Positions 7,132 to 11,505 are shown, counted from the first letter of the stretch. The stretch is DNA of 64,000 nt from an uncultured SAR86 cluster bacterium (GCA_902525735.1 CABZIF010000001.1:66813-130812), one strand, 5' to 3'. Notes: generated from the letters alone by a model not told the origin. A program made the numbers and translations.

Positions 7132-8350
7132 GATGGAATTTGCACTAAATACGTTTTATTTAGTACTTTCTGGGGCTTTTGTTATGTGGATGGCAGCTGG
7201 TTTCACAATGTTGGAAGCTGGACTTGTGCGTTCTAAAAACGTTTCAGAAATTGTAACCAAAAATTTAGGTCTATATTCAATTGCATGCGTAATGTATTTG
7301 GCATGTGGTTTTTATTTAATGTACCCAGGTGATGATGTTATTAACGCATACTTGCCAGGTATGGGTACTACTTGGGGTATTAGCTTAGCTGGTTTAACTG
7401 CAAACTATGATTTGGGTTATTCCGATGCTGCTGATTTCTTTTTCCAGGTTGTTTTCGTTGCTACTGCAATGTCAATTGTCTCTGGAGCTGTAGCTGAAAG
7501 AATGAGACTAGTACCGTTTTTTTTATTCGCAGTTGTTATGACTGGATTTATCTACCCTGTTCAAGGTTATTGGAAATGGGGTGGTGGTTGGTTAGACGCT
7601 ATCGGCTATACCGACTTTGCGGGATCTGGAGTAGTTCACTTATGTGGAGCTTCGGCCGCATTAGCAGCTGTTTTAATACTTGGAGCCAGATCAGGCAAGT
7701 ATGGTTCAGATGGATCAGTTACTGTCATGAGAGGATCAAACATTCCAATCGCTGCCTTAGGTGCTTTTATTCTTTGGTTAGGTTGGTTTGGATTTAATGG
7801 CGGATCTCAATTGGCTGTTCACACCGTGGACAATGCCAATGCTGTCGCCCAAGTTTTCCTTAACACAAATGCAGCAGCAGCTGGTGGTGTTTTAGGAGCA
7901 ATTATTATTTCAAAAATATTAACAGGAAAAATGGATGTTACTATGGGAATTAACGGAGCGATTGCAGGTTTAGTTGCAATTACAGCTGCTCCTGACACTC
8001 CCTCTGGCGGACTTGCTACTATCATTGGTCTGATCGGTGGTGTAATTGTATATTTTTCAGTCGTATTCTTTGACTCAGTACTTAAAGTAGATGACCCAGT
8101 TGGGGCAATATCTGCTCACGGTACGGTAGGTGTTTGGGGAATTATGGCAACTCCTTTATCTGGAGCTGGTGCATTCGGCACGCAAGCAATTGGAGCTGTC
8201 TCTATATTCCTTTGGACTTTTATAACTGCAGGAGCAACTCTTCTCGTCATTAAAGCCATCATGGGGCTTCGTCCTACAATGGAAGACGAAATGGAAGGTA
8301 TGGATGCTTCGGAAGTTGGAGTTTCAGCTTACCCAGAGTTTTCAGAGTAA
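7124..8350 (+). CDS. amtB: Ammonium transporter AmtB
   Basis: It is a 408-aa polytopic protein with Amt signatures (DFAGSGVVHLCGASAALAA, WFGFNGGS, AISAHGTVGVWG). It is translationally coupled to glnK. Confidence 0.9.
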   Translation: MTEMEFALNTFYLVLSGAFVMWMAAGFTMLEAGLVRSKNVSEIVTKNLGLYSIACVMYLACGFYLMYPGDDVINAYLPGMGTTWGISLAGLTANYDLGYSDAADFFFQVVFVATAMSIVSGAVAERMRLVPFFLFAVVMTGFIYPVQGYWKWGGGWLDAIGYTDFAGSGVVHLCGASAALAAVLILGARSGKYGSDGSVTVMRGSNIPIAALGAFILWLGWFGFNGGSQLAVHTVDNANAVAQVFLNTNAAAAGGVLGAIIISKILTGKMDVTMGINGAIAGLVAITAAPDTPSGGLATIIGLIGGVIVYFSVVFFDSVLKVDDPVGAISAHGTVGVWGIMATPLSGAGAFGTQAIGAVSIFLWTFITAGATLLVIKAIMGLRPTMEDEMEGMDASEVGVSAYPEFSE

Positions 8351-8368
8351 AATTCTCCCCCCTAATAA

Positions 8369-8398
8369 AAAGGCAGATCGAAAGATCTGCCTTTTTTC
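8369..8398 (+). terminator. Intrinsic terminator after amtB
   Basis: The hairpin AGGCAGATC-GAAA-GATCTGCCT is followed by TTTTTT. Confidence 0.7.
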
Positions 8399-8401
8399 TT
8401 T

Positions 8402-8430
8402 AAAAAAAGGGAGACTGTGTCTCCCTTTTT
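8402..8430 (-). terminator. Intrinsic terminator after the YRG-repeat gene (hairpin usable in both directions)
   Basis: The hairpin GGGAGAC-TGT-GTCTCCC is flanked by an A-run (8402-8408) and a T-run (8426-8430). On the minus strand the stem is followed by TTTTTTT. Confidence 0.65.
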
Positions 8431-8444
8431 CAAGCCATTAATAA

Positions 8445-8609
8445 TTAAGCTACGTGTTTAACACCACGGTAAATTCCTTTACCTGACGTGTTAGACTTTT
8501 CACTTTTAACAGCATCGTGCTTTATACCTCTGTAAATACCAGCTTTAGGAGATTTTTCATCTCTAGCGACATTTTCAGGAGTAACTTTGATACCTCTATA
8601 AGTAGTCAT
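8445..8609 (-). CDS. 54-aa lysine-rich protein with three YRG repeats (DUF4278-like by memory)
   Basis: The track ORF 8445..8660 is trimmed to the ATG at 8609, which lies 7 nt after GGAGG. The product is MTTYRGIKVTPENVARDEKSPKAGIYRGIKHDAVKSEKSNTSGKGIYRGVKHVA. It has its own promoter, leader and terminator. Confidence 0.6.
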   Translation of the reverse strand: MTTYRGIKVTPENVARDEKSPKAGIYRGIKHDAVKSEKSNTSGKGIYRGVKHVA

Positions 8610-8671
8610 ATCGTGCCTCCAGTTTTCGTTTCGATTTCGTACATGCACCCTAAGATGCACACCCTTCTCAA

Positions 8672-8801
8672 CGCGTTCCTTCGGTAGATATTCGGTCTCG
8701 TTCCCTTATCGGTACTTGCTAGCCTTTCTTTAAAAAAAGAAAGAGGTTTTCCTATCTTCCTACTTCCGTTCCTTGCATTAAAATAATGCAGGGAATGAAC
8801 G
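8672..8801 (-). promoter_or_regulatory. Candidate glutamine riboswitch aptamer (glnA RNA / glutamine-I class) with enlarged P2
   Basis: The minus-strand RNA reads CGUUCA-[hairpin UUCCCUGCAUUA/UAAUGCAAGGAA]-ACGGAAGUAGG-[about 74 nt]-CCGAAGGAACGCG. CGUUC can pair with GAACG to form P1. The element starts about 5 nt after the predicted TSS. Confidence 0.65.
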
Positions 8802-8812
8802 ATTACAGTGCA

Positions 8813-8841
8813 ATTATAGAGTTAAGAGCTTTTTTTTACAA
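8813..8841 (-). promoter_or_regulatory. Sigma70-type promoter for the riboswitch/YRG transcript
   Basis: The minus strand reads TTGTAA (8841-8836), a 17-nt spacer, then TATAAT (8818-8813). The predicted TSS is near 8806. Confidence 0.5.
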
Positions 8842-8943
8842 GTTTTTTTTAAAAAATACTCATTTTTTAATTTAATTGTCAATAAATAACTTATCTACAT
8901 ATACACTAGATATAGACCTCAAAGAAGATATAATCCATTCTTT

Positions 8944-11505
8944 ATGAGATTTTTAAATTTCTTACTAATTATTTGTTTAATTTCAAATGCTCAAATTTTA
9001 ACTTCAGCAGATGAGGAGCTTGTGGTTACAGGTTCTTATTTAAAAGACAGAACTATTGAATCTTCTCCAGTAGATGTTTTATCTTCGGCTGAAATAGAAA
9101 ATTTAAATATTTCTTCTCTAGCAGAAATTGGAAAATACATTCATACCTCATCCGGCTCTCATTTTCAAAGTGATTCATTAGAAGGAACGGATCAAGGAAT
9201 GGCTAACATAAATCTAAGGGGTTTAAATTTATCAGCGACTTTAGTAATGATTAATTCCAAGAGAAATACTTTAGCCGGATTGCCTGCAGAAAGCGGAGAT
9301 AGCTACGTAGACATAAATTTAATTCCTCAAATTGCTGTTGAGAGAATTGAAATCTTAAAAGAAGGAGCAACTTCTTTATACGGGTCAGACGCTATTGCTG
9401 GAGTGGTAAATTTTTTAACTTATAAAAATTTTAATGGAGGAAAGTTAAAATTTGCAAACCAAAAGACGCAACATTACGGACAAAATGAAAGGAAATTAGA
9501 GTTTCTATACGGAAATAGTTTGAACGACATTAATTTTGTTTTAGGTTTAGAGATTTTAGATAGATCTAGTTTACCCTCAAAAAAAATTGAAGGCATCTCT
9601 GAGTTAGGAGTAAGTATGTTTGGAAATAGCTTTGAAGCAACAGTTGATGGCACGACTGGTACAGGAGCTTATGCCGGGAATGTTTATTCATCTGGAGATG
9701 TCATCCAAGATGCTAACTGTCTTCAAAACGGAGGAATTCCTGACTACTCAGCTTATGGAAAATTATATTGTGGATTTTTATACGGTGATAGGTTTAATAT
9801 CACAAATGATGAGGATCATGAAAAGATATATCTAAATGCTAATCAATCCTTCGAGAAATATAGTTTTTCCTCAACTTTTATTTTTTCAAGCGTAGACGTA
9901 AATGACAATCCCCAATCTCCATCTTATCCAGCACTGTCATTTCCAGTAATAGCAGTAGGAAAAGCAGGCAGCCCATTCAATAATCCCGTAAAATGGAATG
10001 GTCGACCTTTGGGCGCTTCATCTCCTTCTCCACTATCGCCAAAGGAAATAGATCAATTCCATTTTTCAACTAATTTTGATATCGATTTAAATAAAAGCGA
10101 TAAAATGAAATTAACATTCACTCATAGTGAGCATGAAAACTCAATGAGTCGTCCGGATACTGTTAATTCAAGGTTGATAGCCGCTCTGAATAATACTGGA
10201 GGTCCAAATAATAATTTGACATGGAATATCTTTGATTCTTCTCAAAATTCAGAAACATTAAAAAACTATATTTTAGGAAGCGAAGATTCGGTACATCAAG
10301 CAAAATTATCTATTTTTGATCTTCTTTACGAGGGTCAATTAAATGACGCTAATTATGTTGTTGGCTTTCAAGCTGGTTCAGAAAGTCTTGATGTAACTTG
10401 GAATGACTTAGCAAGAGTTGAATTTGATGCTGATGGTAAAATGACGAAATCTGCAGATTTATTATTTTTAGGAGGAGGATCAAATGTTAATTCTGACAGA
10501 GAAAAATATGCGATTTTTTCTGAATTTTATCCTCAGATAGGTAATGACTTAGATTTAAAAATTTCAGCAAGGTTTGAAAAAATTGGCGACGAATCCTCAT
10601 TTGATCCAAAAATATCTCTAAAAAAATATGTAAACAATAATTTAATATTAAGAGGTTCTCTGGGAACTTCCTTTGCAATGCCATCTTTAGGTCAACTGTA
10701 TTCTGCAAATACATCTTTGGGTAACGTATCTGGAATTTTTATTCGAGTTTCTAAAGTAGGAGACCCGGATCTAAAACCTCAATCATCAACAAATTCAAAT
10801 TTTGGAATTATTTATCTTTATGAAGATAGGAAAATCTCTTTAGATTACTGGCAAATAGATTACAAAGACCGATTGACAGTTGAGAGTGCGAAAACCCTCT
10901 ATGCTGCAAATCCTAATAATCCAATTTTTACTTACAATTCCGGAGTACTTTTTGCAGCTAATGTAAAATATATTAATGAAGAAAAGACAGATTTATCTGG
11001 CATAGATTTTTCTTTCGAATCTGGAAAATACAACAGTATTTATGGGCAATTTGATTATAAGATAAATGGTACCTATTTAATGAAATATGAAACTACTCAA
11101 GGAGGTACTTCAATAGAAAGAGCTGGAAGATTTAATCATGATATCGACGGATATTCTCTTCCAGAATATAAAGTAAATCTATTTGCTTTAATGGAAAAAA
11201 ATCTCAATAAATATACTTTTAATGCCAGATATGTAAGTGGTTACGATAACCATAAAAGATTGCTTACAAGAGCAATTTCTGTTGGAGGATATACTAATAG
11301 GGTAGAGTCTTCTTTGATGTATGATCTAGGTTATCAGCGAAGTTTTAAAATGAACAACTTAGACTATAACTTGAATTTTTCAATTCTAAATTTAACCGAT
11401 GAGGACGCACCGAAAGTCAATAGTCAGCCTGAGTTTAGTTATGATCCAAGACAAATAGATCCTAGAGGCAGAATTTTCTCTTTTGGGATTGAAATAAACT
11501 TGTAA
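8944..11505 (+). CDS. TonB-dependent outer-membrane receptor
   Basis: It is 853 aa with a signal peptide. The plug region carries VVTGS...SPVDVLS and IERIEILKEGATSLYGSDAIAGVVNF, followed by a long beta-barrel. Confidence 0.85.
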   Translation: MRFLNFLLIICLISNAQILTSADEELVVTGSYLKDRTIESSPVDVLSSAEIENLNISSLAEIGKYIHTSSGSHFQSDSLEGTDQGMANINLRGLNLSATLVMINSKRNTLAGLPAESGDSYVDINLIPQIAVERIEILKEGATSLYGSDAIAGVVNFLTYKNFNGGKLKFANQKTQHYGQNERKLEFLYGNSLNDINFVLGLEILDRSSLPSKKIEGISELGVSMFGNSFEATVDGTTGTGAYAGNVYSSGDVIQDANCLQNGGIPDYSAYGKLYCGFLYGDRFNITNDEDHEKIYLNANQSFEKYSFSSTFIFSSVDVNDNPQSPSYPALSFPVIAVGKAGSPFNNPVKWNGRPLGASSPSPLSPKEIDQFHFSTNFDIDLNKSDKMKLTFTHSEHENSMSRPDTVNSRLIAALNNTGGPNNNLTWNIFDSSQNSETLKNYILGSEDSVHQAKLSIFDLLYEGQLNDANYVVGFQAGSESLDVTWNDLARVEFDADGKMTKSADLLFLGGGSNVNSDREKYAIFSEFYPQIGNDLDLKISARFEKIGDESSFDPKISLKKYVNNNLILRGSLGTSFAMPSLGQLYSANTSLGNVSGIFIRVSKVGDPDLKPQSSTNSNFGIIYLYEDRKISLDYWQIDYKDRLTVESAKTLYAANPNNPIFTYNSGVLFAANVKYINEEKTDLSGIDFSFESGKYNSIYGQFDYKINGTYLMKYETTQGGTSIERAGRFNHDIDGYSLPEYKVNLFALMEKNLNKYTFNARYVSGYDNHKRLLTRAISVGGYTNRVESSLMYDLGYQRSFKMNNLDYNLNFSILNLTDEDAPKVNSQPEFSYDPRQIDPRGRIFSFGIEINL

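Follow-up and report, generated by a model that had tools for sequence, protein, structure and literature searches.

Why should a glutamine riboswitch carry 74 additional nucleotides (nt) in one of its helices, and are they a structured part of the switch? The question is raised by a 64,000-nt stretch of DNA from an uncultured SAR86 cluster bacterium (GCA_902525735.1, CABZIF010000001.1:66813-130812; the whole stretch is hereafter called the window), whose minus strand at 8803..8670 matched the glutamine-I riboswitch family RF01739 (cmscan, 42.3 bits; gathering cut-off 35). Comparison with relatives from the same bacterial order and from IMG/VR contigs answers the second part: the 74 nt are a real, conserved and folded extra arm in P3 of the glutamine riboswitch, and the arm apparently marks an undescribed structural subclass of this riboswitch. 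An earlier note on this DNA, made from the sequence alone, had described an insertion of about 74 nt in an enlarged P2 arm. The insertion is there and occupies exactly 8758..8685, but the hairpin that hosts it is P3 in the published nomenclature; the naming of P1, P2 and P3 used here follows PMC6212724 and PMC6698751.

The aptamer and its P3 arm

Every conserved block of RF01739 is present in the cmscan alignment, which leaves 74 bases unaligned (shown as a [74] insert between GGAAGUAGG and CCGAAGGAACG) versus 6 in the consensus. On the minus strand, the aptamer including the arm (8670..8803) consists of P1 (CGUUC 8801-8797 with GAACG 8678-8674), the P2 hairpin (8795-8769), the conserved block ACGGAAGUA (8770-8761), P3 (8760-8759 with 8684-8683), the GAAG block (8682-8679), and the linchpin C after P1 (8673). 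The glutamine-contacting core, made up of CGUUC/GAACG, the ACGG at 8770-8767 and the linchpin C, is intact; these elements also provide a long-range G-C pair (PMC6698751, PMC6212724). Both halves of the loop-E module at the base of P3 (AGUA 8764-8761 and GAA 8682-8680) are aligned to the consensus. The RF01739 trait that is missing here is the short P3 hairpin (2-3 base pairs (bp) and a loop of a few nt in the consensus), and the long P3 is the feature that distinguishes the subclass from other RF01739 members.

A family regular expression (regex) yielded 94 distinct arm sequences, to which genomes of the same order contributed 42 and IMG/VR contigs 52. The structure was written onto their 94-row alignment (A2), and its pairs were counted against shuffles and slid controls. 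Paired cells amounted to 95.2% in the observed alignment versus 81.0% in the shuffles, none of 500 of which reached the observed value, and to 35-52% in the slid controls. Nineteen of the 28 pairs change on both sides. P1 is invariant in all 94 sequences, its blocks being required by the search patterns themselves; all four counted pairs of P2 change on both sides, with 100% of cells paired, and both pairs of P3 covary.

In the fold of the arm, P3 is prolonged by a short helix, P3a, which opens onto a three-way junction from which hairpin B and arm C branch. As the earlier note had suggested, AGAUA (8757-8753) pairs with UAUCU (8690-8686) and closes the arm beside GG/CC. Four of the five P3a pairs change on both sides (e.g., G-C 47 versus A-U 30, and U-A 48 versus C-G 33), and the fifth (A8753-U8690) is kept in only 40/94 sequences. 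P3 and P3a together occur in 38 distinct strand combinations, all of which form a helix, and matched P3a strands pair at -3.84 kcal/mol versus -1.95 kcal/mol for mismatched strands. Junction strand J1 (GG AAAACC, 8745..8752), whose last G and AACC are invariant, leads into hairpin B (UCUUUCUUU-UUUU-AAAGAAAGG, 8723..8744). Here a U.G and a C-G base pair are invariant and the rest covaries: in 7 of the 9 pairs both sides change, the share of paired cells is 97.3%, and 67 distinct versions all fold as a hairpin, which bears out the inner hairpin proposed earlier (CCUCUUUC...GAAAGG, 8746-8723). Arm C has a loop-E-like module, the 5' half of which is supplied by junction strand J2 (CU AGC A AGUA, 8713..8722). 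J2 is followed by hairpin C (CC-GAUAA-GG, 8704..8712), which varies in length and often has a GNRA loop, and by junction strand J3 (GAACGAGACCGAA, 8691..8703), which contains a second, inner GAACG (8703-8699). Both pairs of hairpin C covary (C-G 81; G-C 4 and 11; A-U 7), and its 43 distinct versions include some with long extensions.

Arm C is composed of a C-G pair, non-canonical pairs, the loop-E-like AGUA/GAA module and the variable hairpin, with AGC-A-AGUA between hairpins B and C and GAA-C-GAGA after hairpin C. The pair C8718-G8699 is formed in 94/94 sequences. Sequences with an additional U in AGC-U-AAGUA invariably have an additional A in GAAC-A-GAGACC (14/14), as in the natural co-inserted pair GAACAG/AGCUAAGUA, which indicates that the two strands run antiparallel as an irregular helix; the 14 sequences are possibly one clade and hence one event. 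The AGUA/GAA around hairpin C is the same loop-E signature as that around the aptamer's P3. The invariant part of the junction comprises ~21-24 nt (G-AAAACCUC, GG, AGC-AGUA and GAA-GAGACCGA), and the stems change freely. The insertion is thus not drifting neutrally: in the comparison of orthologs that the earlier note had suggested, it is kept in relatives with compensatory changes in its helices. We consider the structure of the arm and its membership in a riboswitch very likely.

A recurrent extension of hairpin C, UUUUGGGUCAAUA(A/U)AU(U)CCAG, was seen in several loci (L092, L096, L097, L279, L290, L299, L312, L325, L359, L386). It occurs with different closing stems (CCUUC../..GAAGG and AGCAC../..GUGCU) in IMG/VR lineages and is a conserved optional add-on to the arm.

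The motifs listed in the earlier note, including ACCGAUAAGGGAACGAG at 8713-8697, are all found on the minus strand of the window. Its view of the arm as carrying degenerate copies of the aptamer's conserved blocks holds for one of them, since AAGUA-[hairpin]-GAA mirrors the aptamer's AAGUA-GG..CC-GAA loop-E module, and is not supported at the level of the family for the other echoes. AAGAUAGG (8758-8751), which had been read as an echo of GGAAGUAGG, is the 5' strand of P3a; the GAUAGG strand occurs in 44/94 sequences only, and other P3a 5' strands (AAAACCUG, AGACAAG, etc.) each have a matching 3' strand. ACCGAUAAGG, likewise taken for an echo, is hairpin C, whose stem and loop vary and which starts with CCGA in 18/94 sequences. 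The triple ACCGA (8713-8709, 8696-8692 and 8685-8681) is present in the window but not supported across the family. Most echoes are specific to this lineage, and only the AAGUA...GAA module and GAGACCGA are family features.

Occurrence of the arm

A 391-nt query matched 36 of 61 related genomes by BLAST. An order-wide pattern, GGAAGTAGG-N62-92-GAAGGAACG, was run on 266 genomes and matched 60, of which 49 carry the arm and the other 11 have tandem canonical aptamers. The 49 comprise the window's own genome (G000), 38 of the 49 other genomes of its family, and 10 of 25 genomes in one genus of a second family. A further genome (L007) has a 91-nt arm; here cmscan (35.3 bits) aligned the 3' strand of hairpin B and J2 as the 3' block of the aptamer, which was taken as coincidence because this strand varies family-wide. 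The arm is kept over four genera of the window's family, one genus of the second family and many IMG/VR lineages, and its length ranges from 60 to 110 nt. Short-P3 aptamers were found in only one genus of the window's family (11/50 genomes). The strict arm pattern gave three loci in a genome contig collection, all titled 'MAG: Gammaproteobacteria bacterium', near relatives having possibly been left out of that collection. The pattern AGCNNAGTA, which had no matches in the 266 genomes of the order, is not the arm's true sequence and has no bearing on the occurrence of the arm.

A second sample was chosen by the glutamine blocks and their spacing only, regardless of arm content, and is free of the bias of the family regex. 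Its loci, at least 240, comprised 123 tandem aptamers, 34 chance matches without a 5' CGUUC, and 83 single long-P3 aptamers. The 83 represent 44 distinct sequences, 40 of which belong to the arm family (among the matches listed), and the remaining 4 have unrelated inserts. AACCUC, AGC(N1-2)AGUA and GAGACCGA are carried by all 40 arms of this arm-blind sample.

The possibility that the arm is a free-standing module was also considered and rejected. All 41 IMG/VR loci found with the arm alone lay inside aptamers, one of them cut by the contig end, and the same search of the 50 family genomes gave exactly one match in each of 39, at the aptamer's place. No second aptamer was found in the fetched locus in any of the 94 arm-bearing cases, and an open reading frame (ORF) with at least two YRG motifs follows 91 of the 94 arms, the other three having too-short flanks.

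Arm-bearing relatives scored 35.3-40 bits against RF01739, versus 57-71 bits for canonical aptamers of related genomes. An RF01739 search of the window's own genome, in which 131 candidates were scored, reported no match despite the 42.3-bit aptamer found by cmscan. Long-armed aptamers are easily missed by filtered searches, and the subclass is probably under-annotated because aptamers with the arm score barely above the Rfam cut-off and the genome-wide family search missed the aptamer.

Elsewhere in the order, loci L078-L083 (genomes G075, G039, G081 and G057) have double or triple canonical glutamine aptamers of 57-71 bits each; the canonical tandem aptamers of the order have short P3 loops such as GG-UGAAAA-CC. 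The aptamers of L078-L083 directly precede glutamine synthetase-like genes of two kinds, a porin-like ORF whose product has a signal peptide, and an ORF of 43-45 amino acids (aa). With tandem aptamers ahead of glutamine synthetase-like genes, glnA itself is therefore among the targets of glutamine riboswitches in this order of heterotrophs.

Other long P3 inserts, unrelated in sequence to the arm, were found in the IMG/VR loci L282/L329, L285 and L193 (91 nt in L282 and 37 nt in L193). L282 and L193 scored 42-43 bits against the glutamine aptamer, and L285 gave no match at E up to 0.01. A different P3-insert architecture is found in a further group of IMG/VR loci (L132-L134, L136, L138, L139, L141-L144 and L147), in which cmscan placed an outer aptamer with a 46-nt P3 insertion holding GGAACG, then CGUUCA and a hairpin, and then CGCAAAAG-CCGAC. 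The CCGAC block is repeated in these loci, whose arrangement resembles two aptamers, the second being a variant that is nested inside the first or interleaved with it. Elaboration of the aptamer at P3 seems to be general.

Candidate roles of the arm

According to PMC6698751, glutamine is contacted in the major groove of P1, and P3 projects to the side, away from the ligand site. This outward position, together with the existence of unrelated long inserts in P3 (L193, L282, L285, L329), would be consistent with a neutral insertion in a tolerant loop that has no function. However, this explanation is contradicted by the compensatory changes that keep the helices, by the invariant junction, and by the retention of the arm across genera and IMG/VR lineages, and we regard it as extremely improbable.

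The best explanation overall, which we consider rather probable, is that the arm is a structured peripheral domain grown from P3 that tunes the glutamine switch. We infer that the core still senses glutamine and turns on translation of a downstream mini-protein, as the cyanobacterial gifB switch does. P3 reorients upon glutamine binding (PMC6212724), and the arm would be a tertiary module on the tip of this swinging helix. The rigid junction may fix the geometry of P3, or it may dock on the core through the invariant A-rich strand and the loop-E turn. In this way the arm would determine how the bound state is shaped or how stable it is, and would thereby adjust the affinity or the sharpness of an aptamer that stands alone and binds weakly. 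Such tertiary tuning is put forward tentatively. Kink-turn, tetraloop-receptor and loop-loop kissing interactions were considered as conserved contacts, by eye only, and set aside, with no GA tandem in register and loops that are too variable.

Several observations weigh against the tuning proposal. Because the family regex fixes several blocks, the 94-sequence set is in part invariant by construction. At -11.7 kcal/mol, the insert folds no more stably than chance (z = 0.06 versus shuffles), and the whole aptamer folds with z = -0.64; the arm is taken as real because of the comparison, that is, conservation and compensatory changes, and not because of its folding energy. The candidate tertiary partners are all invariant, so covariation says nothing on tertiary contact, and many but not all versions of hairpin C end in a GNRA loop, which rules out docking into a tetraloop receptor as the conserved contact. 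The ~24 invariant nt represent conservation at the level of a ligand pocket, which equally fits a second binding site. Furthermore, full-length leaders fold more stably with P1 formed by the inner GAACG in 66/76 cases (mean 2.6 kcal/mol), RNAalifold on 29 leaders also selects the inner P1, and this preference fits a switching idea better than a purely static scaffold.

Switching between two 3' partners of P1 had been proposed in the earlier note. The inner and outer GAACG would compete for the single 5' CGUUC, and the mutually exclusive folds would serve as an expression platform or as a checkpoint in folding. Transcribed ahead of the outer copy, the inner one could hold P1 captive until the 3' block has been synthesized or glutamine has bound. 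The inner copy does exist, and the two folds are near-isoenergetic in the aptamer alone. For the 134-nt aptamer, the minimum-free-energy (MFE) structure has the inner partner in P1 and the centroid has the outer one, and when each P1 partner is forced in the isolated aptamer, the mean difference between the folds is 1.7 kcal/mol, the outer being more stable in 71/78. The inner GAACG is kept in 41 of the 42 distinct sequences from genomes of the order. However, it is present in 78/94 sequences overall and missing in 16/94, and in the arm-blind sample it is kept in 26 of the 40 arms and missing in 14 (12 GAACAG, 1 GAAAG and 1 AAACG), because of which the alternative P1 is not a family feature. 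Local structure accounts for the conservation of the inner GAACG, namely the GAA of the loop-E module, the invariant C-G pair and the U/A co-insertion (14/14). P1 never varies, so covariation cannot back either partner. The predicted unpaired probability of the Shine-Dalgarno (SD) sequence hardly differs between the folds (outer 0.43, inner 0.51), from which no regulatory logic follows. The released 3' strand of P3a has no matched complementarity to the SD or start. We infer that the inner GAACG is conserved as part of arm C and not as a second P1 strand. A competition for P1 appears quite unlikely, with a transient or lineage-specific role possible in this lineage as judged from the modelled folds.

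Masking of the SD or start by the 3' strand of P3a itself was a further candidate. In the full-length MFE structure, UAUCU is paired with GAUAU at the start codon, and covariation seemed to be present in one sublineage. Over 50 distinct strand/leader pairs, matched combinations gave -2.45 kcal/mol versus -3.02 kcal/mol for mismatched ones, with 1000/1000 permutations at or below the observed value, and this candidate was rejected.

Another masking mechanism would place an anti-SD element in the junction. The invariant CCUC(U/C) at 8746-8742 would pair with the SD GGAGG (8620-8616) while the junction is unlocked, and glutamine-driven folding of P3 and the junction would withdraw CCUC and free the ribosome site. 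The AACCUC of all 40 arm-blind arms is consistent with this mechanism, as is the behavior of its surroundings: two C's are unpaired in the covariation model, and the next U.G and C-G never covary, unlike the rest of hairpin B. An SD-like GGAGG, GAGG, GGAG or AGGA stands ahead of the start codon in 91/91 scored leaders, and the short, hairpin-free leaders have no other conserved pyrimidine stretch. In addition, the Synechocystis switch has been proposed to act by melting a pairing that blocks the ribosome-binding site (PMC6212724). However, the pairing would have 4-5 bp only, any purine-rich SD is complementary to any CCUC, and folding did not predict the CCUC-SD pairing as dominant. CCUC and the SD are both invariant, which makes covariation uninformative, and invariant pairs that close a junction are usual in aptamers on structural grounds alone. 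We consider the anti-SD mechanism unlikely.

The invariant junction also raises the question of a second sensor. The earlier note had mentioned a nested second sensor as a possibility. One for glutamine is not supported: the arm is without CGUUC, no second complete set of aptamer blocks (CGUUC, ACGG, GAACGC) was found in it, and the arm alone matched neither RF01739 nor RF01704 by cmscan. At E up to 10, the arm alone (8683..8760) matched no Rfam family, with four chance matches (best E-value 2.5). A sensor of something else would sit inside the glutamine aptamer. Its three-way junction would recognize a different small molecule or a protein, e.g., the basic YRG mini-protein, and folding of the arm would gate P3 and hence the glutamine aptamer, which would lock only when the arm is occupied. 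Free stems around ~21-24 fixed junction nt form an aptamer-like pattern, the architecture parallels that of the host aptamer (hairpin, linker, AGUA, hairpin, GAA), and P3a both closes the arm and is the stem on which P3 depends. However, nothing observed indicates a ligand or partner, the arm was never found alone and has no Rfam family match, it lacks the glutamine-binding CGUUC/GAACG and ACGG, and the gene context, one mini-protein, hints at no second signal. This possibility is improbable; if true, it would be a natural two-input riboswitch built by nesting and not in tandem, responding to a further nitrogen-status signal or to feedback by the mini-protein.

The transcription unit and related riboswitches

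The gene presumably controlled is a 54-aa ORF with three YRG(I/V)K repeats (8445..8609, minus strand; AUG at 8609-8607). Its product scored 21.3 bits against Pfam DUF4278 (E = 3.4e-4, below the cut-off of 25.3), and the YRG mini-protein is a weak relative only of DUF4278 (IF17-like). Immediately upstream, the other strand carries glnK and amtB. A promoter-like TTGTAA-17-TATAAT (8841..8813, minus strand; 10/12 matches) sets the RNA's 5' end a few bases ahead of the aptamer; relatives also have TATAAT 7-10 nt ahead of CGTTCA, and the loose homopolymer end of one RNA-library contig at 8804 is a weak hint on the RNA 5' end. Between the aptamer and the ORF is a 60-nt leader (8610..8669) with GAGAAGGGUGU, a hairpin at ~8662-8640, an A-rich stretch and the SD. 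In the leader hairpin, 5 of 7 predicted pairs change on both sides among 29 leaders. An invariant ACGAAAUCGA(A/U)ACGAAAACUGGAGG comes after this hairpin; the leader is common to the order and some IMG/VR members, and is absent where the leader is 26-36 nt long.

Downstream of the ORF, a GC-rich hairpin with a U run (GGGAGAC-ACA-GUCUCCC-UUUUUUU, 8402..8429, minus strand) was read by eye and was not listed by the terminator scan; the hairpin with its seven U is likely the terminator of the unit. The mini-protein gene lies on one side of it and amtB on the other. Contigs of RNA libraries from three studies span 8388..8827, end at about 8388-8409, and cover neither flank (8300-8387 and 8828-8950), which fits a single short transcription unit; these contigs give neither strand nor level. 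In marine metatranscriptome contigs, the summed word depth over 8388-8827 was very high (~1e5 to 6e5 in two runs of one study) and higher in the leader than in the ORF; this depth includes relatives and phage copies and cannot be read as an expression level. In a few contigs of low depth, 8763 is joined to 8662 or to 8648 with a single added letter, and these contigs probably come from other aptamer variants. On the plus strand, the window also contains a full-length IMES-5 RNA (RF02995, 53664-53811; 128.7 bits, cut-off 96.1), a small RNA family of marine metagenomes.

The glutamine-I riboswitch (glnA RNA motif) is known, for example, from Synechocystis, where it lies in the leader of gifB (Klaehn et al. 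2018, PMC6212724), and its structure was determined by Ren et al. 2015, as described in PMC6698751. Like this known riboswitch, the RNA described here has P1 CGUUC/GAACG, a P2 hairpin, ACGGAAGUA, the loop-E AGUA/GAA and the linchpin C, stands at the mRNA 5' end of a gene for a small DUF4278-like protein, and adjoins nitrogen genes (glnK-amtB). Unlike it, P3 is an arm of 60-110 nt with a three-way junction and ~21-24 invariant nt instead of a short capped hairpin, the Rfam score is 35-42 bits versus 57-71 bits for canonical aptamers of related genomes, and the riboswitch is found not in a cyanobacterium but in a marine, heterotrophic gammaproteobacterium or on an IMG/VR contig. An enlarged P3 is not described in the literature searched, although a mention in Ames and Breaker 2011, in supplements or in Rfam alignments is possible.

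Tandem glutamine riboswitches, of which 157 doublets and 4 triplets are counted in PMC9481103, likewise have extra RNA beyond the minimal aptamer for one gene and repeat the loop-E module. In the subclass, however, the extra RNA lies inside P3, is without P1 or ligand-contacting nt, and has no neighbor aptamer (0/94). The closest analogy for how the arm may act is the ghost aptamer of singlet glycine riboswitches, which these riboswitches need for binding and which supports it via A-minor contacts (Ruff et al. 2016, PMC5066625) and likewise combines a lone aptamer with a conserved, non-binding helical element. According to the same source, the ghost aptamer flanks the aptamer as a vestige of the P1 of a tandem partner, whereas the arm is nested in P3 and has a three-way junction. 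The likeness would be one of function only, not of membership, and the contact made by the arm is putative.

Glutamine riboswitches are aptamers of ~60 nt from cyanobacteria and unassigned marine sequences that have low affinity and are often arranged in tandem for reasons not understood. A large share of the marine versions carry a conserved extra domain on the helix that moves upon glutamine binding. These armed versions occur in a streamlined gammaproteobacterial order and in many phage-like contigs, are abundant in RNA libraries, and always have a single aptamer. For probing and crystallography, the subclass offers a precise model of the structure together with its coordinates and naturally occurring variants. 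It also provides a defined natural experiment on how a peripheral domain may tune a minimal aptamer, and thus a testable alternative to the tandem arrangement.

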